Shown piece after piece: positions 2,412 to 49,680 of a stretch of 64,000 bases of DNA. The notes beneath the pieces were generated by a model that saw only the letters and a program-made list of their open reading frames with translations, searched no databases and was not told the origin of the DNA. Made by a program: the position numbers and the translations under genes. The number at the start of each line of letters is the position of its first letter. The stretch's first letter is position 1. Source of the stretch: Patescibacteria group bacterium (lineage in GTDB: Bacteria; Patescibacteriota; Doudnabacteria; UBA920; O2-02-FULL-48-8); contig DASUKB010000004.1 of NCBI GenBank assembly GCA_036278915.1, positions 73,441-137,440 of the forward strand, in the 5' to 3' direction.

Positions 2412-4418
2412 ATGGCCCGATTGGAAACACAAATAAATCAAATTTACTACCTGCCTGATGATAAGCGGGTTGCTCTTATACTGACGGAAGAGACCTTCGG
2501 CAGTAACTCCCACCTCTTTTTCATCGCGGACCTGGTCCGGATCGCCAAGCGAACAGAAAAATCCGACCTGGAAAAAATTTCTGAAATTATCCTGGGTATT
2601 TTCCGCGACAACAAAAAATTATCTGGCGAGGCTCTGTTTGAGTCTTCTCTAGCTGAAATAAATCAGCGACTGGCCGACTTTGCCCACGCGGGCAAAAAAA
2701 CATGGCTCGGTAAATTTTCCGCGGCCCTGGTGCTCAAACACGGCGAAAATATCTGTCTTGCAAACACCGGGCAAATGTCAGCCATGCTTTATCGCAATGA
2801 CGCATTTTTGGAAGTTCTGCCTGCGGAAAAACTGGGTCTGCATCCGCTTAAAATTTTCTCTAACTTCACCACTGGCAAGCTTAAAGCCTCCGACGTCCTG
2901 CTTTTGACCACGTCCAATCTCTTCAATTATCTGGCTCTTTCAAATCTGGCAGGAATGCTGTCATCCGCCGCTCCGGACCAAGTCGCCCAGGACGCGGCTG
3001 GCATTTTAAAAGACACTGCCGCAGCAGACGAAGGATTTGCTTCATTCTTTATTACAATGTCCAAAGCCCAAGCTCCAGCGGGTGTCGTCGTTCCCAAAGA
3101 AGAAAAAGAAAAACCCAAACCAGCAATTGTGGCACCTGAACCCGAGCCCTTGCCTTCGAAAGAACAAGCAAGCCCTGTGATTCCTCTGGCAGAAGAAGAG
3201 ATTTATGCGCCGCTGCCTGGAAGCACTAAACCGTCTCCACGCTTCTCGCCGCCCTCTTTGCCCAAAATTTCTTTTGGCAAGCTCAAAAAATTCCACCTAC
3301 CAAAAATTTCCTTTAGATTTCCGAAGCTTTCGTTTTGGGAACATCTGTCCACCTGGGCTAAATTTTTCCTCGTCAGTTTTATAATCTTTCTATTGCTGTT
3401 TGCATCCAACATAATTGCCTATAGCATTCGCAAACACCGGCAAGATAACACTTCACAGGCCCAAGCCGCGGTAGATGCTTTGACCAAGGATCTAAGTGAC
3501 GCAGAGTCATCGCTTATCTACCGCGACCAAACCAGTGCCCTGAATTTGCTTGCCAAAACCAACAATGATCTCAATGCTCTCAAGGACCTGGATCCAGACG
3601 CTTACAACCAATACCAGCCGCAGGTCGCCGATTTGTCCAGCCGCATCAACCATATCACTGTGGTCTCAAGTCCGCAGGTGCTGGTCACCCTCAAACATCC
3701 GGCCACAAATATTGCGCGGGCAGGCGCAGGTTTCTATATTGCCGACTCGAGCACTGGCACAATCTCAACCTATAATACTTCCAGCACTGACAAGTCGGGA
3801 AAAGAACTGTTTCTCCTCAACCAAATCGGACAAATCCAAGGTCTGGTATTCATTCCGAATGTCGGCGGCGTAGTTATCACCGCCTCAGAGATGTACGTAG
3901 TCGACACGGCGCAAAGCCAGTTTGATCTCCTGCATATCTATCCTAAAACAAGCCTCGATGGCCTGCGTTTCGTCAACCCCGACCAGCTCTATACATTGGA
4001 CAAGGCCGCAGGCCAGGCTGACCAAATCCAATTTTCTAAAAGCGAGCAGATTGATCCGGTGCCGCTGCTTAAATCAAAAATTGACTTAACCGATATTGTA
4101 GATATCGGCGCGGACTCTGATATCTACCTTCTGTCTCCCACTGATCTTGCCAAATATACCAAAGGTGCTTTAAATAGTAATTTCCAGCTGCAACAGCCCA
4201 CGGATAAACTTACCTCCGCCAATAAATTATTTGTCGCTGGCAATATTTATATTTTGGAATCTGCAAAGAAGCGTTTGCTTATATACAACAAACAAGGCCA
4301 ATTGCAAACGCAAATTTTCTTCCCGAACGCCACTGATCTGCGAGATTTCTACGTTGACGAATCCTCGCGGAACATTTTCCTGCTTGACTCGGACAAAATC
4401 GAATCAATCACCTTCTAG
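2412..4418 (+). CDS. membrane-anchored protein with a degenerate PP2C-like N-terminal domain, a Pro-rich linker, one TM helix and a large extracytoplasmic domain
   Basis: Start chosen at MARLETQ (ATG 2412), downstream of an extended -10 (TGgTATAAT, 2390-2398). The N-domain has PP2C-like motif remnants (ANTGQMSAML; DVLLLTTSNLFNYL) with the catalytic Asp positions substituted. It is followed by a PEPEPLP linker, a TM helix (FLVSFIIFLLLFASNIIAY) and about 330 extracellular residues. Confidence 0.5.
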   Translation: MARLETQINQIYYLPDDKRVALILTEETFGSNSHLFFIADLVRIAKRTEKSDLEKISEIILGIFRDNKKLSGEALFESSLAEINQRLADFAHAGKKTWLGKFSAALVLKHGENICLANTGQMSAMLYRNDAFLEVLPAEKLGLHPLKIFSNFTTGKLKASDVLLLTTSNLFNYLALSNLAGMLSSAAPDQVAQDAAGILKDTAAADEGFASFFITMSKAQAPAGVVVPKEEKEKPKPAIVAPEPEPLPSKEQASPVIPLAEEEIYAPLPGSTKPSPRFSPPSLPKISFGKLKKFHLPKISFRFPKLSFWEHLSTWAKFFLVSFIIFLLLFASNIIAYSIRKHRQDNTSQAQAAVDALTKDLSDAESSLIYRDQTSALNLLAKTNNDLNALKDLDPDAYNQYQPQVADLSSRINHITVVSSPQVLVTLKHPATNIARAGAGFYIADSSTGTISTYNTSSTDKSGKELFLLNQIGQIQGLVFIPNVGGVVITASEMYVVDTAQSQFDLLHIYPKTSLDGLRFVNPDQLYTLDKAAGQADQIQFSKSEQIDPVPLLKSKIDLTDIVDIGADSDIYLLSPTDLAKYTKGALNSNFQLQQPTDKLTSANKLFVAGNIYILESAKKRLLIYNKQGQLQTQIFFPNATDLRDFYVDESSRNIFLLDSDKIESITF

Positions 4419-4435
4419 TTCCAACAAATTTAGCC

Positions 4436-4472
4436 ACAAAAAAACCGCCTTTTACAAAAGCGGTTTTTTATT
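4436..4472. terminator. bidirectional rho-independent terminator
   Basis: Hairpin aaaaaaccgcc-ttttacaaaa-ggcggtttttt flanked by A and T runs, downstream of the 2412..4418 gene. Confidence 0.6.
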
Positions 4473-4621: not shown

Positions 4622-6304
4622 TCATTTTGATTGCGTGGTTGTTTGAGCCGGCGTCGAACTGGCTCCAAAATTCACCAAATCGGGGTTAATAGTCCGAAGG
4701 AGGATGTACGCACCAAACAGCAGGATAAGTCCGACGACTGCCGAAGTGATATATTTTTTACCGCGGCTGGCTCGATCGGCATTGCCTGCCGAGGTCATAG
4801 TGATATAGCCTCCGACAATTATCATAAGCACGGCCAGAATTGCGGCCACACTCAAGGACCACGTATAAACCTTACTAACTGAAACCCGGATAGGACCAAG
4901 ATCTATAGTCCCCGCAGTCTGAGGCGGATTTGCTGGAGGATTTTTTGTTATAACCTCGCCCAGCCCAACATGGCTTGTAGCCGCGATATGGTCATAGTTG
5001 ACGCTTCCCAAAGTCACAGCCCCGGAACCGGTAACCGCCACTGCTGCATTATAAGTTCCGCAATTGCCGTCATTGCACGCAGGAGCAATAGTTAAATTGC
5101 TGTCATACACAAGTCCGGTATAGTCTAGCTCTGACAAGTCTGCGCCGCCTTCCCAATCCTGCGCTTCCAGAAAAAATGTATTCGTCGCAGGATTATAATT
5201 TAGAACAGGCGCGCCGTAACCGCCGGAGGATGTCACTGTCTGGCCAGAGTTGATGGTCATAACCGGAAATTCCGGCCCGAGTGAACCATCGCTTTGGATA
5301 TTTCGGCCCCAAATCCCTCCGTTTGAGCCATCGCGTCCGCGCTCCATCCACACGGCAACCGCAGTTTTATCCACGGGATCATAAGCTATTTGCGAATTGG
5401 AAAACGCGTTTCGCCCAACCCGGGTCTGGCTCAACTGGACGGGTGCGCCTATTAATTCACCGGTTTTGGCGTTGATGCGCTGCAACATGACCCGGTCATC
5501 CTCATTGGCTGTGTCAGAACCGCTTAAAAGCGCCACATAGGTGGCCAAGTATTCATCGTTGTTTGTATCCACGGCAACACTGCTGAAAATATCTTGAAAA
5601 TCATTGCTGCCAAAATATATAACTTTCGGGTCAACCTTGCCATTTTCGTCCACAAGGTCAATTTCCGGATGATTAAACCCGCGCAATATCAGATATTTGT
5701 CATTTACGGGATCAAACGTTACTCCGGCCAAAAGGGCCACTGAAGTGCTCACCACGAACTCATTTCCCAAAGGCTGCCCTGTGCCGGAAACAAAGCGCGC
5801 GTAAGTTGATCGGCCATTCGTGGTTGGACGTTCGTCTTCCCAAGCGACCAAAAATTTGTCAGCGGCCGAATTATAAATGGCTTTGGGCGTACCGCGAAAC
5901 ATACCGCTGGCTTGGTCAATTTGAAAAGCAGACCCGAGAGGCGCTAGCGTTTCAGGATCTGCCATAACACCCCTAATGTGGACATTTTCGGAAGATCCCG
6001 TGGCTGAATCTGAAGCCACAACCAACAGTTGATTATGTATATCCGAATATGACGCGTCCAAGCCCCAGGTGCCGGACAGAGGAAACGTTGAAGGATCGGC
6101 TGGGTTGGTGCCGGGCGCGTAGGTTTTACCTGTCTGATGGTTGTTGTACCAATCCAGACAATTCAACATCGCCGCCGTGTCCGTGGGCCACGGATCGCAA
6201 ACTGGAGCGGTTTGCGCTTGAACCAGGCTAACAGGTCCTAAAACTAGCAATAATATTGCGGCAAAATTTACAAATTTGTAAATTTTTATCCTAATGGTAT
6301 TCAT
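4622..6304 (-). CDS. large secreted protein with C-terminal two-helix T4SS-pilin-like (VirB2/TrbC-like) domain
   Basis: N-terminal signal peptide MNTIRIKIYKFVNFAAILLLVLGPVSLVQA. The C-terminal about 80 aa (VYTWSLSVAAILAVLMIIVGGYITMTSAGNADRASRGKKYITSAVVGLILLFGAYILLRTINPDLVNF) are two hydrophobic helices separated by a short polar loop. This domain is paralogous to the C-terminus of the 51232..51669 protein. It is the last gene of a four-gene minus-strand operon and overlaps the 6291 gene. Confidence 0.6.
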   Translation of the reverse strand: MNTIRIKIYKFVNFAAILLLVLGPVSLVQAQTAPVCDPWPTDTAAMLNCLDWYNNHQTGKTYAPGTNPADPSTFPLSGTWGLDASYSDIHNQLLVVASDSATGSSENVHIRGVMADPETLAPLGSAFQIDQASGMFRGTPKAIYNSAADKFLVAWEDERPTTNGRSTYARFVSGTGQPLGNEFVVSTSVALLAGVTFDPVNDKYLILRGFNHPEIDLVDENGKVDPKVIYFGSNDFQDIFSSVAVDTNNDEYLATYVALLSGSDTANEDDRVMLQRINAKTGELIGAPVQLSQTRVGRNAFSNSQIAYDPVDKTAVAVWMERGRDGSNGGIWGRNIQSDGSLGPEFPVMTINSGQTVTSSGGYGAPVLNYNPATNTFFLEAQDWEGGADLSELDYTGLVYDSNLTIAPACNDGNCGTYNAAVAVTGSGAVTLGSVNYDHIAATSHVGLGEVITKNPPANPPQTAGTIDLGPIRVSVSKVYTWSLSVAAILAVLMIIVGGYITMTSAGNADRASRGKKYITSAVVGLILLFGAYILLRTINPDLVNFGASSTPAQTTTQSK

Positions 6305-6926
6305 CTTTGCATGGGCCGATGTAGCGGTTTACTTCGGCGTTAAAGATAGCCACACAATAAACCTGGCCCGTATCGCTATCGCGTAAATTTACCCACGGAC
6401 TGCCCAGGCCATCATTGATCGCTGTGTTGGCGCTGGCAATGCTTTGGACTGCGGATATCGAAGCTTGCGCTCCATTGGCATCTGCCACTGGATTTTTATG
6501 ATCTCCAGCAGGAATTATATTATCAATCGGCGGTTCCTGCATGAAATTCGCCGGTATTTGAAATGTCGGCACAACGGCCACCGCAGGTTGATTAATTTTC
6601 GCAGGCGTTAGAAGCTGCGCGAATTCATGTATCATACTGTTTCCAATATACGCCACGCCGCTTTCGGTTGGCGCTGGAGTCAGAGCAACAATTACTGCAT
6701 CCGCAGACTCTTGATAAAATTCATTGACTGAAGACACTATTAGATTCACTTCGCCAAACCACGGCCGATCACCTATGACCTCAAGCGTAGCCACTTGGAA
6801 CTGGTGTTTGACGGACTGCTGGAACTGCGCGACGTCTGAATTTCTAGCGGGCTGCAGCACAAAAGCCGCCGCTAAAAGCAACACGGCGGATAGTGAATAA
6901 AAAAGCTGTTCAGTCCAGTGTCTCAT
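6291..6926 (-). CDS. hypothetical secreted/membrane-anchored protein (paralog of the 6923..7423 protein)
   Basis: N-terminal hydrophobic anchor. Shares the motif V.S(V)NEFYQESA with the upstream gene. Overlapping start/stop couples it translationally to its neighbours. Confidence 0.5.
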   Translation of the reverse strand: MRHWTEQLFYSLSAVLLLAAAFVLQPARNSDVAQFQQSVKHQFQVATLEVIGDRPWFGEVNLIVSSVNEFYQESADAVIVALTPAPTESGVAYIGNSMIHEFAQLLTPAKINQPAVAVVPTFQIPANFMQEPPIDNIIPAGDHKNPVADANGAQASISAVQSIASANTAINDGLGSPWVNLRDSDTGQVYCVAIFNAEVNRYIGPCKDEYH

Positions 6927-8690: not shown

Positions 8691-8747
8691 TTGTCATCCT
8701 GAGCACAGAGAAGGATTTAGTATTCTTCGCTTCGCTCAGAATGACAA
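8691..8747. repeat. palindromic hairpin repeat, family 1, copy A (TGTCATCCTGAGC...GCTCAGAATGACA)
   Basis: TTGTCATCCTGAGCACAGAGAAGGATTTAGTATTCTTCGCTTCGCTCAGAATGACAA. An imperfect inverted repeat of about 23 bp per arm. It sits in the rplJ-rplL spacer. Near-identical copies are at 22024-22081 and 49621-49680, and a diverged copy at 49225-49286. Confidence 0.85.
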
Positions 8748-20284: not shown

Positions 20285-20758
20285 CTAATCTTGTTCAGGT
20301 AATGCCTGATGGTGTCCTGAAACAGTTGAATTAAATATTTCTAGAGCCCATTTAATAATTTGTTTATCGTGGACCTGAGTCAACTCAGAACCAGCTGTTA
20401 TAAACTTATGTCTGGTGGTCTCAGATGCATCAGGGTCGGCAGCAGCATAAACCACTTTTTTAACACCGGCTTGAATCAAGTTCGTAGTGCAGTCTCCGTA
20501 CTTTTCACCCTGACCACCGGGACTGCGTTTACCACAAGGCTCAACAGTTGTATATACAATGTCATTTTCCAAAATCGACTCTCCGGCAGATTTCAAATTT
20601 TGCAATAAAGCATATTCAGAATGAATTCCATTATTTGTACTGATTCCGCTAGCGATAATTTTCCCGTCTCTGACTAAACATGAAGTAACCACTCCGCCTT
20701 TGTCGTCGGACTGTTTAGATATTTCAAAAAGATGGTTAAATATTTCTAGTTCAGTCAT
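20285..20758 (-). CDS. CMP/dCMP-type zinc deaminase domain protein (RibD-N/ComEB-like)
   Basis: HSE...(about 27 aa)...EPCGKRSPGGQGEKYGDC...LIQAGVKKVVYAAADPD matches the H[AS]E / PC..C zinc-binding signature and its downstream helix. Confidence 0.65.
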   Translation of the reverse strand: MTELEIFNHLFEISKQSDDKGGVVTSCLVRDGKIIASGISTNNGIHSEYALLQNLKSAGESILENDIVYTTVEPCGKRSPGGQGEKYGDCTTNLIQAGVKKVVYAAADPDASETTRHKFITAGSELTQVHDKQIIKWALEIFNSTVSGHHQALPEQD

Positions 20759-20832
20759 AACGCAAGTTTAACAAAAAACAGCCTCATTGACGAGGCTATC
20801 TTTTGGCAGCAAACTTGGGAGAAGGCTGAAAA

Positions 20833-21453
20833 CTATTTAATCAATTCTTTGATCTTGTTAATGTAATCGGAACGGTCTACTGAGATAACTGGCATATTAT
20901 ATTTCCTTGCCTCCATTTTAATCATTTCATTAAAAGCAAAAACCCATTCCACTTCCTTCTCTTTAACATTATCTGGATACTTACTGGCTTCATCCCACAG
21001 ACCACGTGTGAAGACGGTGTTCCTAACGCGGTCTTTGTCCTCGTCTATGAGAAAAATTGATCGAATATCGACTTCGGATTTCCACCCCTGGTTCGCTATT
21101 AGGTGAGGAAGAATAGCAACACCTTCAATTATGAAATCGCCCCAGAAGTAATTAACCTCGACAAAACTCCGTACACCTTTCCAAACGTCCTCGCTCTCTT
21201 TGTTTTGATGAGCTACAATTTGGTCCGGCGTGTTGTTATTGAGGAATTCTACGGCAATATCCGCTCCAATACTTACACCGGGATCACCATGCAAAAAAAG
21301 GTTTGGATAATCTTCTTTTCTAACTATCCAACGCATCTGCTCTCGGATCATATCTGTAGAAATCCAAGGCACATCTAGTTCTTTTGCCAATATCCCCGCA
21401 GTATGAGTTTTTCCAGCCGTTGGTGATCCACCGATTAAAACAACTTTATTCAT
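20833..21453 (-). CDS. P-loop nucleotide/nucleoside kinase-like protein
   Basis: Walker A motif LIGGSPTAGKTHTAG at the N-terminus, with a Walker-B-like hydrophobic strand ending in D (SIFLIDED). The fold resembles small NMP/2-phosphoglycerate-kinase-like kinases. Confidence 0.6.
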   Translation of the reverse strand: MNKVVLIGGSPTAGKTHTAGILAKELDVPWISTDMIREQMRWIVRKEDYPNLFLHGDPGVSIGADIAVEFLNNNTPDQIVAHQNKESEDVWKGVRSFVEVNYFWGDFIIEGVAILPHLIANQGWKSEVDIRSIFLIDEDKDRVRNTVFTRGLWDEASKYPDNVKEKEVEWVFAFNEMIKMEARKYNMPVISVDRSDYINKIKELIK

Positions 21454-21607
21454 ATCCTAAGCATAACAAAAAACACTAGCAATAGCTAGACAATCTCGGG
21501 CTGGTCGATTGGACAGTAGAAAGACAGTGCTGCCTTCCCTCACTTCTGCCCGTTCGATTCCTACGATGACTATCAAAAAAGCGCCACGCAGAAGCGTGTC
21601 GCTTTTT

Positions 21608-21681
21608 TGGCAGGGGGTGTAGGAATCGAACCTACGCCAACGGTTTTGGAGACCGCAGTACTACCACTATACTAACCCCCC
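21608..21681 (-). tRNA. tRNA-Trp (anticodon CCA)
   Basis: Minus-strand GGGGGGTTAGTATAGTGGTAGTACTGCGGTCTCCAAAACCGTTGGCGTAGGTTCGATTCCTACACCCCCTGCCA. Cloverleaf with anticodon loop CUCCAAA. Confidence 0.85.
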
Positions 21682-21691
21682 TCATAGGGAA

Positions 21692-21946
21692 CTATTTAAT
21701 CCCTAATCGTTTTAATAACCCTGTATAGGACGATCCAAAATCTTTTAATTTCTGTTCTCTGTTCAGAGCCGCAGCTTTATCGGGATAAGCTTCAAAGTAA
21801 ATCAATTTTAAAGGCAGTCGACTACTTGTAGATTTGACCTTGCCTGGATTATGGAGGTTGAGCCGTGACATTACATCTTCGGTGTAGCCGATATAAAATC
21901 CATTATCTTTCAGACTTTGCAAGAGGTAAACGAAATGCATATCCAT
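21692..21946 (-). CDS. GIY-YIG domain nuclease (small free-standing)
   Basis: MDMHFVYLLQSLKDNGFYIGYTEDVMSRLNLHNPGKV...IYFEAYPDKAAALNREQKLK carries the GIY..YIG and conserved R, E, N positions. Start set at ATG 21946. The ORF caller's longer N-terminus just translates the tRNA remnant. Confidence 0.7.
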   Translation of the reverse strand: MDMHFVYLLQSLKDNGFYIGYTEDVMSRLNLHNPGKVKSTSSRLPLKLIYFEAYPDKAAALNREQKLKDFGSSYTGLLKRLGIK

Positions 21947-21950
21947 ACTA

Positions 21951-22023
21951 TGGGTGTAGGAATCGCCCCGCCTCTCGCGAGGTGGGGTTGGAGACCGCAG
22001 TACTACCACTATACTAACCCCCC
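21951..22023 (-). pseudogene. tRNA-Trp pseudo-copy (nt 1-37 intact, middle replaced by a 22-nt hairpin, 3' end degenerate)
   Basis: 22023-21989 is identical to tRNA-Trp positions 1-37, ending exactly after the anticodon loop A37. Then comes CCCCACCTCGCGAGAGGCGGGG, then CGATTCCTACACCC (T-arm 3' part). There is no acceptor 3' strand or CCA. Confidence 0.6.
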
Positions 22024-22081
22024 TCGTCATCCTGAACGCAGTGAAGGACCTTTGGATTCTTCGCTTCGCTCAGAATGACAC
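22024..22081. repeat. palindromic hairpin repeat, family 1, copy B
   Basis: TCGTCATCCTGAACGCAGTGAAGGACCTTTGGATTCTTCGCTTCGCTCAGAATGACAC, abutting the 5' end of the tRNA-Trp pseudo-copy. Confidence 0.85.
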
Positions 22082-22088
22082 AATATTA

Positions 22089-22244
22089 CTATTTAGTTTC
22101 TTTGTGTTCGGTGTGCTTTTTGCACCATTTGCAAAACTTGCTCGTAACCAAACGGTTTGGAGTCAGTTTTTTGTTCTTGCGGGAATGGTAGTTTATGTGA
22201 TGGCAAACCGTACATTCCATGCTAATCAAATTGTCCTGCGACAT
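22089..22244 (-). CDS. rpmG: 50S ribosomal protein L33
   Basis: ...MECTVCHHINYHSRKNKKLTPNRLVTSKFCKWCKKHTEHKETK shows the L33 zinc-ribbon pattern and the C-terminal KHT.HKE.K. Start at MSQDNLIS. Confidence 0.8.
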   Translation of the reverse strand: MSQDNLISMECTVCHHINYHSRKNKKLTPNRLVTSKFCKWCKKHTEHKETK

Positions 22245-22267
22245 ACTGTTCCTTTCTAAAAAGTTTA

Positions 22268-22392
22268 TTAGCGAGTACACTGACAAAATTAGCCTTCGCA
22301 GGCGGCCTCAGCCGCCGAGAAAGCAGGATGCAAAAATTGACCTTCCAATGTCAATTTTTGACATCCGGTAATTTTGTCAGCGTACGAGCGAT
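22268..22392 (-). promoter_or_regulatory. structured leader between tRNA-Thr and rpmG with long inverted repeats
   Basis: Arms ttagcgagtacactgacaaaattag and taattttgtcagcgtacgagcg flank an inner hairpin (gcggcctcagccgc) and a second inverted repeat (caaaaattgaca...tgtcaatttttg). Confidence 0.35.
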
Positions 22393-22396
22393 TTCC

Positions 22397-22472
22397 TGGA
22401 GCTGTCGGTCGGAATTGAACCGACGACCTACTCCTTACCATGGAGTTGCTCTACCAACTGAGCTACGACAGC
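22397..22472 (-). tRNA. tRNA-Thr (anticodon GGU)
   Basis: GCTGTCGTAGCTCAGTTGGTAGAGCAACTCCATGGTAAGGAGTAGGTCGTCGGTTCAATTCCGACCGACAGCTCCA, with anticodon loop AUGGUAA. Confidence 0.85.
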
Positions 22473-22546
22473 ACGCCTTTTGGACGCTTTAACCTGCACA
22501 CTGTAACACAAAAACTAATTTTAATCAACCCTTTTTCCAAACCGAA

Positions 22547-23287
22547 TTAAGCTGATTTTTCCACCGGGAGGGTGAAGTGGAAGGTTGTGCCTTTCCCCTG
22601 TTTGGATTCAAACCAGATGCGGCCGCCTGAGGCTTCTATAAACGATTTGGTGATGTACATGCCTAACCCTGTGCCAGTGGATTCAAATTCCAAAATGTTT
22701 GAACCGCGGAAAAATTTACTGAACACGCGCGGCTGTTGGGCTTTGGGTATGCCGACTCCGGTATCGCGGAATGTAACGTGGGCAAACCCATGGTCGAGCA
22801 TCAGGTTTATATCAATCCGTGATTTTTCCCGGCAATAAGTGATGGCATTCTCGACAAGATTGAGCACTGCTTGTTTGATTTTGATCGGCTCTGAATCCAC
22901 AAATGGAAAAGGTTCCTGCTCCACTGTAAAGGTCACCCTGATCTCTTTTTTCTTGATCTCGGAAGCTTCCTGCCGCAGTACCTGGTTTATGGTGCCCGCC
23001 AAATCCGTGGGTTGGAGATACAGTTTGGTGTTGCCTGACTCAAGCCTTGAGACTTCCAGCAGATCGTTGACCAGTTTGATCATGCGCTCGTTGGCCAAGT
23101 AGATTTTCTCCAAAATATCTTTTTGTTTGCGCGTCAAATTGTCGGTCTTGCTTTGTTCCAGCAATTCCAAAAGCCACTTGACGCCAGTAAGCGGCGTGCG
23201 CAGCTGATGACTGGTCAACGAAATAAAATCCGCCTCCAATCGGGAGGCTTTATCGGGAAGTTCAATTTTGGCTCGATTGCGTGGCAT
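22547..23287 (-). CDS. sensor histidine kinase (cytoplasmic, HisKA + HATPase_c)
   Basis: H-box LTSHQLRTPLTGVK, with N, G1 and G2 boxes in the C-terminal part (GTGLGMYI). Confidence 0.75.
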   Translation of the reverse strand: MPRNRAKIELPDKASRLEADFISLTSHQLRTPLTGVKWLLELLEQSKTDNLTRKQKDILEKIYLANERMIKLVNDLLEVSRLESGNTKLYLQPTDLAGTINQVLRQEASEIKKKEIRVTFTVEQEPFPFVDSEPIKIKQAVLNLVENAITYCREKSRIDINLMLDHGFAHVTFRDTGVGIPKAQQPRVFSKFFRGSNILEFESTGTGLGMYITKSFIEASGGRIWFESKQGKGTTFHFTLPVEKSA

Positions 23288-23290
23288 ACA

Positions 23291-25060
23291 TTAGGCCACA
23301 GGCTTAGGCGCGGCTGCAAGCGGAATGTTGAAATAAAATGTCGTACCTTTGCCGACTTCGGAAAAAATTCCAATGTGGCCGCCGTGCGCCTCCACAATGC
23401 CTTTGGAAATCACCAATCCCAAGCCGGTCCCTTTTTTCTCAGAAACGGCGCCCTGCTCCAGCTGCGTAAATTTATTGAACAGCTTGCCCATCTGCTCCTC
23501 AGCAATGCCGACACCGGTGTCCGTGACCGCAATTATGAGCTGGTCCGAACTGTACTTAACATCCTCTTTTATACCCGGCCAGATCATGCCCAACCCTGTG
23601 ACGCGAGAGAGCATTTGTTCGCCGGCAGCAAGCGTGAACGCGGAGATCAAAACTTTTCCTCCTGCGGAAAATTTAAACGCGTTGGACAGAAAGTTATTCA
23701 GAACCTGGCCGATTTTATTTTCGTCCACGGACACAGCCGCAGGCAGATTCAAGCCAGTTTTACTTTCAAGCGCAATCCGATTCTCTGCGGCCAAAGTCTT
23801 ATATGAACTGATTTTCATTTGTATCAGCGCCGCGATGTCCGTAGGTTTTTTCAAAACCTGAAACTTTCCCGATTCAAGCTTGGCCACGTCCAGCAGATCG
23901 TTCACCAAATCGAGCATAGACGCGGAATTCGTGACTATGAGATCGATAAATTCCTGGTATTTTTTCTGCTCGTTTTTAATCTTATCCTCACGCAGAAGGT
24001 TGGCTATGGACCGGATGCCGGTCAGAGGACTGCGCAGTTCGTGGACCATCATGGAGGTAAAGTCCTCGCGCATCTTTTCCACGGCCTGCTCCTGGGTGAT
24101 GTCGTGGAAGAGCACAACCGCGCCCAAGGCCTGGTTTTCTGCATCCTTAACCGGACTTATAAGCACGCGCAAAAATTTATCTTGCAGCTGCAGCTTATCC
24201 TCCACAGTAAGTTTATCTGTCTTGATGCTTTCCTCAATTTTTGTCCGCAGGTCAATTTTGGAAGACAACGCGTCCAGCACGTCAAATATAGAGGGCTGCG
24301 GCTTGCTCAATCCAAGCATGTTGCGCGCAGCTGGATTTATGACGAGAAGCCTATTGCGGGTATCCACCATAAAAACGCCGTCGGCCATGGACGAGACCAT
24401 GGAATTGAGCTTGCCTTTTTCCTGATCCAAGATCATTTCAAGCTTAGACACCGCAGTCGAAGCCTGGTCCATAATTGTGTAAAGAATGGACATTTCATCC
24501 TCTTTGTACAAATCCTCCTGGGTTGAGGCAATAGTCAAAAGTCCCACTGCCTGGGCATTGATAATAACAGGAACGTTGAAAAACGACTTGATTCCTTTTT
24601 TGTTGGTTTCATCCGTTATGGTTCCGGAAATGGATTCATCTAGATCCTGTGGCGTGATATTTCGTCCCAGCAGTTCGGATAAAGCCTTGCTGCTTCGAAT
24701 TTTTACGTCATCCACGAACTTTTGGCTTATCGATTCTTCCAGCACGCAGTGAAATATAACCCGGCCTTCGTCGGTGAGCAACAGGTACGAAACCGTGGAG
24801 TACGGCAGAAGCTTGCGCAGGGAACCGGTGATAACGTCCACGATTTTCTGGACATTGAGCGAGTAACCGATGCGCTCGCCCAGCTCTTTAAGTATGGAAA
24901 CTTCATACATTCGCCGCTGCATTTCGCCTTCTTTGTGGTGCAGGTCTTTGCGCATGCGGCGATTTTCCCACCAAATAAAAATAATGACAATCACAGTATA
25001 GATTGCCAGCGCGGTAATGATTAAAGTTCCTTGTGAACTAAAAATGCTGTCCATGAACAA
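23291..25060 (-). CDS. membrane sensor histidine kinase with GAF/PAS-like sensor domains
   Basis: N-terminal TM helix and coiled coil, then sensor domains, then H-box MMVHELRSPLTGIRSI and an ATPase domain (GTGLGLVISKGIVEAHGG). Confidence 0.75.
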   Translation of the reverse strand: MFMDSIFSSQGTLIITALAIYTVIVIIFIWWENRRMRKDLHHKEGEMQRRMYEVSILKELGERIGYSLNVQKIVDVITGSLRKLLPYSTVSYLLLTDEGRVIFHCVLEESISQKFVDDVKIRSSKALSELLGRNITPQDLDESISGTITDETNKKGIKSFFNVPVIINAQAVGLLTIASTQEDLYKEDEMSILYTIMDQASTAVSKLEMILDQEKGKLNSMVSSMADGVFMVDTRNRLLVINPAARNMLGLSKPQPSIFDVLDALSSKIDLRTKIEESIKTDKLTVEDKLQLQDKFLRVLISPVKDAENQALGAVVLFHDITQEQAVEKMREDFTSMMVHELRSPLTGIRSIANLLREDKIKNEQKKYQEFIDLIVTNSASMLDLVNDLLDVAKLESGKFQVLKKPTDIAALIQMKISSYKTLAAENRIALESKTGLNLPAAVSVDENKIGQVLNNFLSNAFKFSAGGKVLISAFTLAAGEQMLSRVTGLGMIWPGIKEDVKYSSDQLIIAVTDTGVGIAEEQMGKLFNKFTQLEQGAVSEKKGTGLGLVISKGIVEAHGGHIGIFSEVGKGTTFYFNIPLAAAPKPVA

Positions 25061-48690: not shown

Positions 48691-49632
48691 GTGACAAAGA
48701 AATTTATGCATAGATTAATAATAATTTTGGGTCCCACCGCCTCCGGCAAATCATCTCTTGCAATTAAACTTGCAAAAAAGTTTAAGGGCGAGATTATTTC
48801 CGCAGACAGCAGGCAAGTCTATCGCGGCATGGATATCGGCACTGGCAAGATTTCCAAAAAAGAACAACGCCTGGTACCGCACTATTTGATGGACGTTGCA
48901 AATCCCAAAAAACAGTTCACCGTCTCTGACTTCAAAAAGCTAGGAGCCCAGGCAATCGAAAGAATCAAGAAAAAACATAAATTGCCGTTTATAGTTGGCG
49001 GCACGGCCTTTTATATCTATTCGCTCATAGACGACTGGCAGATTCCGGAAGTTGCGCCAAATAAAAAATTACGTAATACATTACGTAATAAATCCACCAG
49101 GGAACTTTTTGCCATGCTCCAAAAACTGGATCCGAGGCGCGCGGCCAACATAGACTCACGCAATCCCGCGCGCCTCAGCCGCGCGATTGAGATAGTCAAA
49201 ACGACAGGTAGGCCAGTGCCCTCCCTGTCATCCCCGACTCCGATCGGGGATCTTAATAAAGATTCCCGCTTCCGCGGGAATGACACAAAGGTTTTATTAC
49301 TTGGTATCCGCAAAGACCAAAACGAGCTTTACAAGCTTATCGATAAGCGCTTGGAAGAAAGATTGAGGTCAGGAATGGTTGCAGAGGTAAAAAAACTTCA
49401 CAAATCTGGTTTGTCTTGGAATAAACTAGAAAGCTTTGGTCTAGAGTACCGCTTTGTTTCTCTTTATTTACAAAATAAATTATCTTATAGAAAAATGGTA
49501 GACCAGCTCAAATCCGCCATTCATAAATTTTCCAAACGCCAGAATACATGGTTTAAACGCGACACTCGGATCCATTGGATCAAAAACGAAAAAGAAGCTC
49601 GGAAACTGATTAAGCCTTATCTGTCATCCTGA
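48691..49632 (+). CDS. miaA: tRNA dimethylallyltransferase
   Basis: P-loop IIILGPTASGKSSLAI...ISADSRQVYRGMDIGTGK is the MiaA signature. The stop codon TGA lies inside repeat copy C. Confidence 0.85.
   Translation: MTKKFMHRLIIILGPTASGKSSLAIKLAKKFKGEIISADSRQVYRGMDIGTGKISKKEQRLVPHYLMDVANPKKQFTVSDFKKLGAQAIERIKKKHKLPFIVGGTAFYIYSLIDDWQIPEVAPNKKLRNTLRNKSTRELFAMLQKLDPRRAANIDSRNPARLSRAIEIVKTTGRPVPSLSSPTPIGDLNKDSRFRGNDTKVLLLGIRKDQNELYKLIDKRLEERLRSGMVAEVKKLHKSGLSWNKLESFGLEYRFVSLYLQNKLSYRKMVDQLKSAIHKFSKRQNTWFKRDTRIHWIKNEKEARKLIKPYLSS
49225..49286 (+). repeat. palindromic hairpin repeat, family 1, copy D, in-frame inside miaA
   Basis: CTGTCATCCCCGACTCCGATCGGGGATCTTAATAAAGATTCCCGCTTCCGCGGGAATGACAC shares its termini (TGTCATCC...GAATGACA) and central GGATCTTAATAAAGATTC with copies A-C. 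It encodes SSPTPIGDLNKDSRFRGND, an approximately 20-aa loop not present in, for example, E. coli MiaA. Confidence 0.7.
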
Positions 49633-49680
49633 ACGTAGTGAAGGATCTCATAAGATTCTTCGCTGCGCTCAGAATGACAA
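49621..49680. repeat. palindromic hairpin repeat, family 1, copy C
   Basis: CTGTCATCCTGAACGTAGTGAAGGATCTCATAAGATTCTTCGCTGCGCTCAGAATGACAA lies between the convergent miaA and gatB genes. It overlaps the last codons and stop of miaA. Confidence 0.85.

Follow-up and report, generated by a model that had tools for sequence, protein, structure and literature searches.

A minimal GIY-YIG nuclease gene between an intact tRNA-Trp gene and its hairpin-bearing partial copy points to a family of probably selfish cassettes at structured-RNA genes

Our study concerns a minimal GIY-YIG nuclease gene in a 64,000-nt stretch of DNA (hereafter the window; contig DASUKB010000004.1) from a bacterium of the Patescibacteria group assigned to the Doudnabacteria. 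The gene lies between an intact tRNA-Trp(CCA) gene, labelled T, and a partial, hairpin-bearing copy of that gene, labelled T*. All position numbers are those of the window, and the parts of this cassette are all on its minus strand, where the order of transcription is tRNA-Thr(GGT), rpmG, a palindromic repeat (element B), T*, the 84-aa GIY-YIG open reading frame (ORF), the intact tRNA-Trp(CCA) and a terminator-like hairpin (Table 1). The intact tRNA, which begins 10 nt past the ORF stop, and the GIY-YIG gene had both been recognised in an earlier reading of the letters alone (the sequence-only reading), and both calls hold: ARAGORN and Rfam identify the former, and the latter matches Pfam PF01541 with 51.6 bits against a cut-off of 22.6.

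T* is a composite of three parts. Segment A, the 5' half of the tRNA with two leader nt, repeats the intact locus exactly over 38 nt (21646-21683 = 21988-22025), in keeping with the identity over canonical nt 1-37 claimed in the sequence-only reading; the 36-mer of the tRNA 5' half occurs twice in the window and in none of 100 shuffles. Next comes a hairpin of 22 nt (21966-21987; CCCCACCUCGCGAGAGGCGGGG; CCCCACCTCGCGAGAGGCGGGG) with an RNA folding energy of -14.8 kcal/mol (z = -3.4), so that the substitution of tRNA sequence by a 22-nt GC hairpin stands as described, although the portion replaced is canonical nt 38-55 and not nt 38-56. Segment B is an exact direct repeat of 14 nt (CGATTCCTACACCC; 21952-21965 = 21615-21628) that keeps T-loop positions 56-60, the T-stem 3' strand and four of the seven acceptor 3' nt; the acceptor 3' strand had been thought missing, and is in fact partly retained. 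The anticodon-stem 3' strand, the variable loop and the T-stem 5' strand are absent from T*, which is not called as a tRNA by ARAGORN, nor by Rfam at E <= 10, and whose minimum-free-energy fold contains no cloverleaf. T* thus has neither the cloverleaf with acceptor, anticodon and T arms nor the model detection of a functional tRNA, and it is the downstream intact copy that preserves tRNA-Trp function, as had been proposed.

The window hairpin corresponds to the common form CCCCGCCTC-TCGCGA-GAGGCGGGG minus 2 nt and with one G>A change, and is slightly imperfect, with one A.C mismatch and a length 2 nt below that of the common 24-mer. Neither a second nuclease gene nor a second GC palindrome of this kind occurs elsewhere in the 64-kb window, and because the palindrome has no other copy there it is not a dispersed repeat of the repetitive extragenic palindromic (REP) type.

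Table 1. Features of the tRNA-Trp locus, listed in the order of transcription
Feature	Position	Strand	Evidence
tRNA-Thr(GGT), first gene of the conserved tRNA-Thr/rpmG/tRNA-Trp block	22397-22472	minus	ARAGORN; Rfam tRNA 71.2 bits; order kept in L190-L194
rpmG (ribosomal protein L33)	22089-22244	minus	Pfam Ribosomal_L33, E 1.7e-16
Palindromic repeat (element B) in the rpmG/tRNA-Trp spacer	22027-22080 (54 nt)	unstranded	21-nt inverted arms
T*, whole	21952-22025	minus	
T* segment A: tRNA-Trp nt 1-36 (canonical 1-37, ending ...CTCCAA) and 2 leader nt	21988-22025	minus	38-nt exact repeat
GC-rich near-palindromic hairpin CCCCACC-TCGCGA-GAGGCGGGG, substituting canonical nt 38-55	21966-21987	minus	
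T* segment B: T-loop 56-60, T-stem 3' strand, first 4 acceptor 3' nt (CGATTCCTACACCC)	21952-21965	minus	
Minimal GIY-YIG nuclease gene, 84 aa	21692-21946	minus	PF01541, E 1.1e-13
Intact tRNA-Trp(CCA)	21608-21681	minus	ARAGORN; Rfam tRNA 67.2 bits; cloverleaf fold
Intrinsic-terminator-like hairpin and T-run, end of unit	21575-21598	minus	Terminator scan
Conserved post-terminator sequence GTAGGAATCGAACGGGCAGAAGTGAGG with inverted 13-nt copy of the tRNA-Trp T-arm	21538-21564	minus	

The uninterrupted state of the locus is seen when the rpmG/tRNA-Trp neighbourhood is compared with that of relatives. The upstream kinase finds Doudnabacteria-like relatives at about 60% identity in which the response-regulator/kinase synteny is kept; two of the loci (L190, L191) have the order tRNA-Thr(GGT)-rpmG-tRNA-Trp and three (L192-L194) the same block inverted. 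All five have a single tRNA-Trp, and the GIY-YIG gene and the T* remnant are both absent from them. The tRNA-Trp of L191 is very similar to that of the window, and alignment gives the window about 342 extra nt; the sole coding content of this 342-bp insert in the tRNA-Trp block is the 84-aa nuclease. An element at its own target locus with an uninterrupted allele in relatives, as is expected of a GIY-YIG homing endonuclease, is thus what these loci display, and the comparison indicates that the nuclease gene and T* were inserted into an ancestral tRNA-Thr-rpmG-tRNA-Trp block. The sequence-only reading had seen here the footprint of a homing-type element; an insertion beside a single ancestral tRNA-Trp bears out this much of it, while the haphazard or decaying remnant and the classical homing endonuclease that it also envisaged are not supported. 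The uninterrupted state is taken from relatives with about 60% kinase identity because the only other contig of the window species, the Logan contig L084, ends inside the repeated tRNA-Trp 5' half (L084 1-60); short-read assembly of the tRNA-Trp locus may be interrupted by the 38-nt repeat.

The arrangement recurs in other genomes. Relatives of the protein were retrieved by protein alignment alone, with one genome per GTDB species (80 loci), and 82 non-redundant loci were analysed. A second set came from a metagenome scan for the pattern CTCCAACCCC-N3-7-TCGCGA-N3-7-GGGG, from which 80 of 101 stretches were analysed (L085-L164), roughly half of them in tRNA-Trp context and the remainder chance matches in GC-rich coding DNA. 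The comparative loci are all metagenome assemblies, with taxon labels as deposited. At 26 of the 82 loci a tRNA on the same strand starts within -15 to +100 nt of the ORF stop, where local tRNA density would give about 1.1; ten of these tRNAs are Trp, and Gln, Lys, Ala, Leu, Ser, Cys, Asn, Val, Phe, Thr and Pro are also represented. With the window included, 18 of the 27 tRNA-adjacent loci carry upstream of the ORF an exact copy, at least 7 nt long, of the 5' end of that same tRNA, interrupted by, or stopping at, a GC-rich hairpin arm, and most of the remaining nine have a divergent tRNA-Trp 5' fragment instead. L001 and L002 share the layout of the window (tRNA-Trp fragment, palindrome, short spacer, ORF, intact tRNA-Trp), and the T*-ORF-tRNA cassette is found in about 20 independent Patescibacteria assemblies. 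The shared architecture, type I, runs from the tRNA 5' half to A37, through a GC palindrome and the 3' part of the T-loop, to the ATG, and a CGA(T/G)TCC... segment follows the palindrome in other loci as well. In the 21 non-redundant type I cassettes, 14-41 nt (median 23) separate the hairpin from the ATG, the ORF encodes 77-85 aa, and the tRNA starts -10 to +19 nt (median 3) from the stop. With about 20 independent assemblies sharing it, and with its hairpin arms changing in compensatory fashion, the arrangement is not a one-off product of decay; these comparisons argue for a conserved type of genetic element, probably a selfish one, rather than a random scar.

The arms of the hairpin vary by lineage (GCCCT/AGGGC, GCCTC/GAGGC, TCCTC/GAGGA, GCTCC/GGAGC, TCCGT/ACGGA and others), and among 19 distinct palindromes in tRNA-Trp context 77 of 86 inner-arm positions are complementary, in a set biased by the search pattern. 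In the protein-retrieved loci, which are free of this bias and were read by eye, most hairpin centres are TCGCGA and a few CAGCTG, with arms as unlike as CCCCGCCC, CCCCGTCGC, ACCTGTCAC and TCCCTCCC. Most hairpins are perfect DNA palindromes, loop included. The hairpin is the hallmark cis-element of the nuclease family, constrained in its structure and its centre.

Its place in the tRNA is also regular. In the closed-hairpin form at tRNA-Trp the palindrome follows A37 and the tRNA sequence resumes at C56 (window, L001, L004, L010, L056, L076), or it resumes within the anticodon loop (L030, L016, L010 copy 1); the hairpin at Lys, Gln, Thr, Asn, Met and one Trp locus is longer and imperfect and occupies the D-loop or the 7/8 linker. 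Of the 12 loci at which the fragment agrees with the local tRNA, 11 have their closed-hairpin junctions at cloverleaf positions that are unpaired. Position 37/38 is where the sequence-only reading had placed the break in the window, but the link it drew from this position to tRNA introns falls away, since the element family puts its hairpins in unpaired cloverleaf loops.

In the open form, inverted repeats of 15-25 bp (CCCC-N-CACC... / ...GGTG-N-GGGG) enclose the ORF with its start and stop codons. Rfam places such insertions in 23S (L025, L028) and 16S (L027) rRNA genes and in RNase P RNA genes (L018, L011); where the open form stands beside an Ala, Val, Ser or Phe tRNA, 7-11 nt of the tRNA 5' end are copied ahead of it. 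The window ORF is not enclosed by an inverted repeat; its hairpin is closed upstream, and the cassette falls outside the type of insertion known from rRNA genes of the candidate phyla radiation (CPR) and from rRNA intervening sequences. The RNase P RNA insertions span 1223-1632 in L018 and 1225-1876 in L011, and L007, L017 and L075 probably have one too; the hairpin arms of L075 are CCCCGCCCTTTTGG...CCAAAAGGGCGGGG, directly before GAGGAAAGTCCG.

Mirror and derived forms accompany the window type. In type III loci the ORF comes directly after the intact tRNA, in the order T-ORF-(TCTCCAA)-hairpin-tRNA 56-76 (L099, L145, L164), and L088 has the mirror form with a degraded ORF. Tandem T* arrays without an ORF are present in L103 and L135 (the latter T*-T*-T), and mixed arrays in L010 (T*-psiORF-T*-ORF-T-T*) and L163. 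Apparent differences in copy number separate samples of one organism, with two copies in L002 and one in L003, and likewise L098 and L100, where the stretches compared are of unequal length. These comparisons show that the arrangements interconvert and that the same nuclease/hairpin lineages occupy other structured-RNA genes. Tandem T* arrays, with or without the nuclease, have a unit of about 104-117 nt (L002 3455-3640; L135 minus 3300-3600; L103 3670-3900; L163). A nested array in L056 (1270-1990) begins with a local tRNA-Trp 5' fragment bearing a D-loop palindrome, followed by ORF1, and continues with a foreign tRNA-Trp 5' half bearing a CAGCTG palindrome, ORF2 and finally the intact tRNA-Trp; a duplicate of the final 14 nt of ORF2 precedes the first fragment, which points to insertions having entered this one tRNA gene in succession.

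The nuclease belongs to a very small type. Homologues begin at the second ATG, at 21940, which gives a protein of 82 aa, and the residues Y7, Y18, G20, R28, H32 and E52, as in the GIY-YIG superfamily, are invariant across 23 relatives. The protein is 100% identical to one labelled GIY-YIG nuclease family protein by NCBI from a Patescibacteria metagenome-assembled genome. Against structures, a family profile matches BH0048 (1ZG2, E 4.4e-13) and EF2693 (1YWL, 7.6e-11), both annotated UPF0213, and then SLX1 chains (1e-4 to 1.5e-3). Most of 126 ORFs encode 78-89 aa, in line with the minimal Slx1-like/UPF0213 proteins, and the window protein is a minimal, single-domain GIY-YIG protein of UPF0213/Slx1 type, too small to hold a DNA-binding domain. 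A classical homing endonuclease of the I-TevI/Seg kind was considered and rejected: the protein has 84 aa in all and consists of the catalytic domain only, with no DNA-binding module. The NCBIfam model grpIintron_endo does not match it, and relatives reach no more than 23 bits where the cut-off is 56; checks for defence systems (PADLOC) and phage families (PHROGs) gave no match for the window protein, and only four relatives were found in 2.9 million viral contigs. Across all loci 126 of 134 ORF hits start and stop cleanly. Few close pairs were usable for dN/dS, and dS was saturated; the values that could be estimated are 0.05-0.10. The ORF is neither disrupted nor unconserved, and the comparisons indicate a functional gene, intact, conserved and under purifying selection.

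At E <= 1e-3 the family comprises 25,260 representatives of 50%-identity clusters, and the window cassette is a member of a large group in which a minimal GIY-YIG gene is joined to a GC palindromic hairpin in or beside structured-RNA genes. Clusters of the protein reproduce the architecture classes, whose labels were assigned by eye, in that the subfamily tracks both hairpin type and target. The TCGCGA/Trp clade includes the window protein and has the C-terminus FGSxYxGLLKRL; the others are a CAGCTG clade, a D-loop clade (Lys, Gln, Thr, Asn, Leu) and open-type clades, including one outside the CPR characterised by TTCACCCCGTTAGATAA repeats. In this last clade, whose labels are not those of CPR bacteria (Odoribacter, Desulfobacteraceae, Planctomycetes and others), the nuclease is flanked by the inverted repeats TTCACCCCGTTAGATAA/TTATCTAACGGGGTAAA (or ...CCCTGTTAAAT...) at L047, L049, L053, L059, L062, L064, L070, L072, L080 and L082, and it looks like a separate mobile family. 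Gene callers often over-extend the nuclease ORF through the hairpin and the tRNA fragment (P0009, P0010, P0014, P0021, P0022, and 21692-22030 in the window), and the resulting spurious N-termini '...PPFAKGGVQN...', '...WRSPTP...' or 'VVLRSPTPPRERRG' are the translated GC hairpin and tRNA-Trp anticodon arm.

Together, these data suggest a model, held with moderate confidence, in which a selfish cassette of hairpin and nuclease keeps one intact copy of an insertion-intolerant tRNA gene and probably spreads and rearranges by recombination, using its tRNA-derived arms. Within the genes for rRNA and RNase P RNA the hairpin encloses the ORF and extends a helix; a tRNA would be intolerant of an ORF so placed, and for this reason the cassette would take the T*-ORF-T form at tRNA genes. 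The unit of tRNA 1-37, hairpin, tRNA 56-76, spacer and ORF would recombine with the resident tRNA-Trp through the tRNA-derived arms, where a crossover 5' of the hairpin would give the T*-ORF-T form of the window, a crossover 3' of it the mirror T-ORF-T*, and unequal exchange among T and T* repeats the tandem arrays; the mirror and derived forms predicted in this way are all present among the loci. The nuclease would most likely supply the initiating break by structure-specific cutting, with an extruded hairpin or cruciform, or the loops of a cloverleaf-folded tRNA gene, as candidate substrates. Such a break is favoured because the nearest characterised relatives cut branched and hairpin DNA and the junctions sit in loops; T* is not a working tRNA, and tolerance therefore cannot explain junctions at unpaired cloverleaf positions. 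From this we infer homology-dependent insertion and mobility, the substrate of the nuclease and the role of the hairpin. A role of the hairpin at the RNA level, in defining or protecting mRNA ends within a stable-RNA operon, is compatible with this model.

Several observations weigh against the selfish cassette. No recent transfer is seen among cassettes compared across genomes, which are 64-73% identical, with the similarity ending at the tRNA ends, and the case for mobility is consequently drawn from patchy distribution, varied flanks and arrays. The T* 5' half matches the adjoining intact tRNA at 24-31 of 36 nt in about 8 of 19 type I loci, where it clearly comes from another tRNA-Trp lineage; in L001 the hairpin-proximal part of T* matches the local tRNA, and the distal part resembles the L076 lineage. 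At these 8 or so loci the divergent acceptor strand of T* would not pair with the 3' strand of the neighbouring tRNA. One simple crossover within the resident tRNA is then not enough, and gene conversion between copies, T* transferred together with the ORF, or a crossover at the very 5' end is called for. The intact tRNA keeps nt 38-55, so that cleavage there would cut the rescue copy, and strong purifying selection with old divergence fits a domesticated function equally well. The scan pattern fixes 20 of about 30 bases, which makes conservation at those positions in the metagenome set circular. Finally, the hairpin mismatches, counted by eye as about 4 G.T versus 6 A.C, show no wobble bias, a pattern that neither proves a role in DNA nor excludes one in RNA. 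A simple insertion at 37/38 carrying tRNA 1-37 was rejected as the general model, for the divergent T* acceptor cannot pair with the 3' strand of the intact tRNA.

It is possible, though unlikely, that the nuclease and T* are instead a domesticated module that benefits the host, for instance in maintaining tRNA or rRNA genes or in RNA metabolism, with T* or its hairpin as a functional RNA inherited vertically and sporadically lost. Intact ORFs, strong purifying selection and saturated dS would accord with such a history, as would the absence of near-identical copies in differing contexts, the loose agreement of protein clades with host groups (judged from record titles and clusters) and the persistence of T* arrays without an ORF (L103, L135). 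COG4123 and TrmH, which we take to be the tRNA m6A37 and Gm18 methyltransferases, would act at anticodon-loop and D-loop positions that coincide with the two loops hosting closed hairpins, and we regard this as a lead and not as evidence. Prokaryotic Slx1-like proteins are described as the minimal GIY-YIG form, repeatedly fused with or neighbouring COG4123 and in one case fused to TrmH (Dunin-Horkawicz et al., 2006; PMC1564403), an association that could also speak for a host function. Against domestication stand the nearest syntenic relatives, which are entirely without the cassette, and the occurrence of one nuclease/hairpin clade at various tRNA species and at rRNA and RNase P RNA genes; moreover, some ORFs are pseudogenised (L010 ORF1, L088, L069), T* ends are variably truncated, array copies of T* carry acceptor-stem mutations, and arrangement and copy number apparently vary between samples.

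We consider it quite unlikely that the ORF is a passenger in a stable-RNA operon whose hairpin, closed at either the 5' or the 3' end of the mRNA or formed by pairing of both ends, defines and protects those ends during processing by RNase III, E, J or P, with passive tRNA fragments and a nuclease that ignores the hairpin. Such an RNA device would have no need of DNA-perfect palindromes that include the loop (TCGCGA, CAGCTG), nor does it explain the lack of wobble bias in the mismatches, the retention of the hairpin in ORF-less T* copies or the junctions in cloverleaf loops, and stems of 8-11 bp are short for RNase III. The hairpin always sits 14-41 nt ahead of the ATG or about 12 nt past the stop, or else its arms take in the start and stop codons, which suits such a device. 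A simple scan for sigma-70-like promoters gave minus-strand hits only inside the ORF and none in the interval from rpmG to the ORF start, and the unit has rpmG on one side and the tRNA on the other, features that also suit this reading; rpmG is the probable source of read-through transcription into the cassette. The removal of rRNA intervening sequences by RNase III is an established precedent (cited in PMC11270868). An RNA device is, in addition, compatible with the selfish cassette and not exclusive of it.

Programmable cleave-and-rescue homing, in which T* would be a tRNA-derived guide and no mere footprint, is in our view improbable. The palindrome would be the handle bound by the 82-aa Slx1-like nuclease, the tRNA segments of T* would address it to the loops of the matching tRNA gene (as a transcript paired with the gene, or as a DNA cruciform or cloverleaf), and the intact tRNA would rescue the host. 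A chance tandem duplication of tRNA-Trp with decay of one copy around an unrelated GIY-YIG gene, or in its place the decayed intron or homing endonuclease gene (HEG) offered in the sequence-only reading, is highly improbable. Slippage or recombination does yield partial tRNA duplicates, and the window hairpin is slightly imperfect; the three-part architecture with its junctions A37/CCCC... and ...GGGG/C56 is, however, repeated in about 20 independent genomes, the hairpin arms covary, and the 5' half of T* is identical to the intact copy at 36 of 36 positions, unlike a decaying one. Rfam at E <= 10 finds no intron, and over 20500-23500 it gave only the two tRNAs, with non-coding flanks of 5-25 nt. 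A group I intron was rejected on the same grounds, the tRNA pieces being separated from the ORF by only 5 and 10 nt of non-coding sequence. The comparative data already contradict duplication and decay. The least credible alternative is site-specific integration of a tyrosine or serine integrase element that left att-type partial repeats: such elements reportedly (in work by Williams from 2002) target anticodon-loop and T-loop sublocations of tRNA genes and regenerate an intact tRNA, but an integrase island would be kb-scale and combine an integrase with a direct repeat of the tRNA 3' part, whereas here the repeat spacing is 342 nt, the 342-bp insert encodes only an 84-aa nuclease, the long repeat is the tRNA 5' part, no integrase is present among the neighbouring genes examined, and the called genes of the about 20 genomes with the same arrangement include none.

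Parallels to the selfish cassette can be found among known systems. Non-intron insertions that encode GIY-YIG proteins in CPR rRNA genes were reportedly described by Brown and colleagues in 2015. Such ORFs are reported to be sparse and probably not homing, and tRNA genes go unmentioned (Tsurumaki et al., 2024; PMC11270868); the rRNA insertions recovered here through relatives of the window protein (16S in L027; 23S in L025 and L028) agree with that account. These insertions share with the window the protein family, the host group and a location in structured-RNA genes, with no group I or group II intron features; they differ in that the window gene lies outside the working RNA, between T* and the intact tRNA, and its hairpin is closed upstream and does not enclose the ORF.

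The phage T4 gene segB encodes SegB, a free-standing GIY-YIG homing endonuclease, within a tRNA gene cluster. Both are intron-less GIY-YIG genes between tRNA genes, presumed to spread by a break at the locus and recombinational repair. Seg proteins, however, have about 200 aa or more with DNA-binding modules, against a catalytic domain of 82-84 aa here, and T4 is a phage not known to carry a hairpin-disrupted copy of the target, where the window is part of a cellular chromosome. SegB and tRNA loci are also mentioned in PMC13096335.

The other near resemblance in design, with an essential gene invaded, a fragment displaced and the complete gene regenerated by sequence linked to the element, is to mobile ORFs of the Allomyces type. 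Paquin, Laforest and Lang reportedly described in 1994 a mobile mitochondrial GIY-YIG ORF in Allomyces atp6 that carries a partial copy of its target gene. A displaced fragment and a regenerated gene are what the 38-nt and 14-nt repeats and the intact tRNA provide in the window, as do 21 non-redundant loci. The Allomyces-type target is, in contrast, protein-coding, with its 3' end duplicated in frame, the enzyme is I-TevI-like, and no palindromic hairpin is known to take part; the kinship is an analogy of design and not homology. Other papers discuss partial duplications beside mitochondrial HEGs.

Intervening sequences in bacterial 23S rRNA (Salmonella, Leptospira) are removed by RNase III, and some contain an ORF. 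As stem-enclosed and sometimes coding inserts in a stable-RNA gene they resemble our ORF-in-hairpin relatives; their ORF family is a four-helix bundle (PF05635), and the window cassette differs in lying outside the functional RNA with a stem that does not enclose the ORF. REP/RAYT systems, IS200/IS605 elements and integron attC sites likewise link a small nuclease or transposase gene to conserved, covarying palindromic hairpins, but with HUH (Y1) or tyrosine-recombinase chemistry and hairpins spread genome-wide, whereas the window-type palindrome occurs once in 64 kb and always within tRNA-derived sequence. The Slx1-like/UPF0213 proteins (1ZG2, 1YWL) give the best sequence matches and share the single-domain minimal form and catalytic residues; a mobile-element or tRNA-gene context is not known to have been described for this group, for which PMC1564403 reports methyltransferase fusions and neighbourhoods only. 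Our literature searches on the topic returned no description of the tRNA form with a hairpin-substituted copy, and no published protein-coding insertions in RNase P RNA genes.

If the selfish cassette is correct, a minimal nuclease element can settle in an insertion-intolerant gene by way of one intact and one hairpin-disrupted tRNA copy, and the known GIY-YIG insertions of CPR rRNA genes would extend to tRNA and RNase P RNA genes. The cassette also links a very large and functionally uncharacterised family with a specific nucleic-acid partner, the GC palindrome centred on TCGCGA or CAGCTG, a pairing that makes the biochemistry directly testable. For annotation, the cassette explains tRNA pseudo-fragments, tandem tRNA-like arrays and over-extended ORF calls in Patescibacteria, and it may explain assembly breaks such as that of L084, from the same species.

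Two further features flank the cassette. Element B abuts T*, as had been noted, but is an older resident: the nuclease-less L191 has it in the same rpmG/tRNA-Trp spacer (4407-4461), and it therefore predates the cassette and represents a separate repeat family rather than one of its parts. It reads GTCATTCTGAGCGAAGCGAAGAATC ... GGTCCTTCACTGCGTTCAGGATGAC, and the window holds three copies, the further ones at 8722-8746 and 49624-49679. Whether the post-terminator sequence GTAGGAATCGAACGGGCAGAAGTGAGG forms part of the cassette is uncertain. It opens with a 13-nt inverted copy of the tRNA-Trp T-arm, has no match in Rfam, and is also present in L191 (4578-4604) and partly in L190 (about 6303-6320), both of which are without the nuclease. 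In L191 an extra hairpin and a tRNA-3'-like piece, '...AGATTCCTACACCCCTGC', follow downstream of it.

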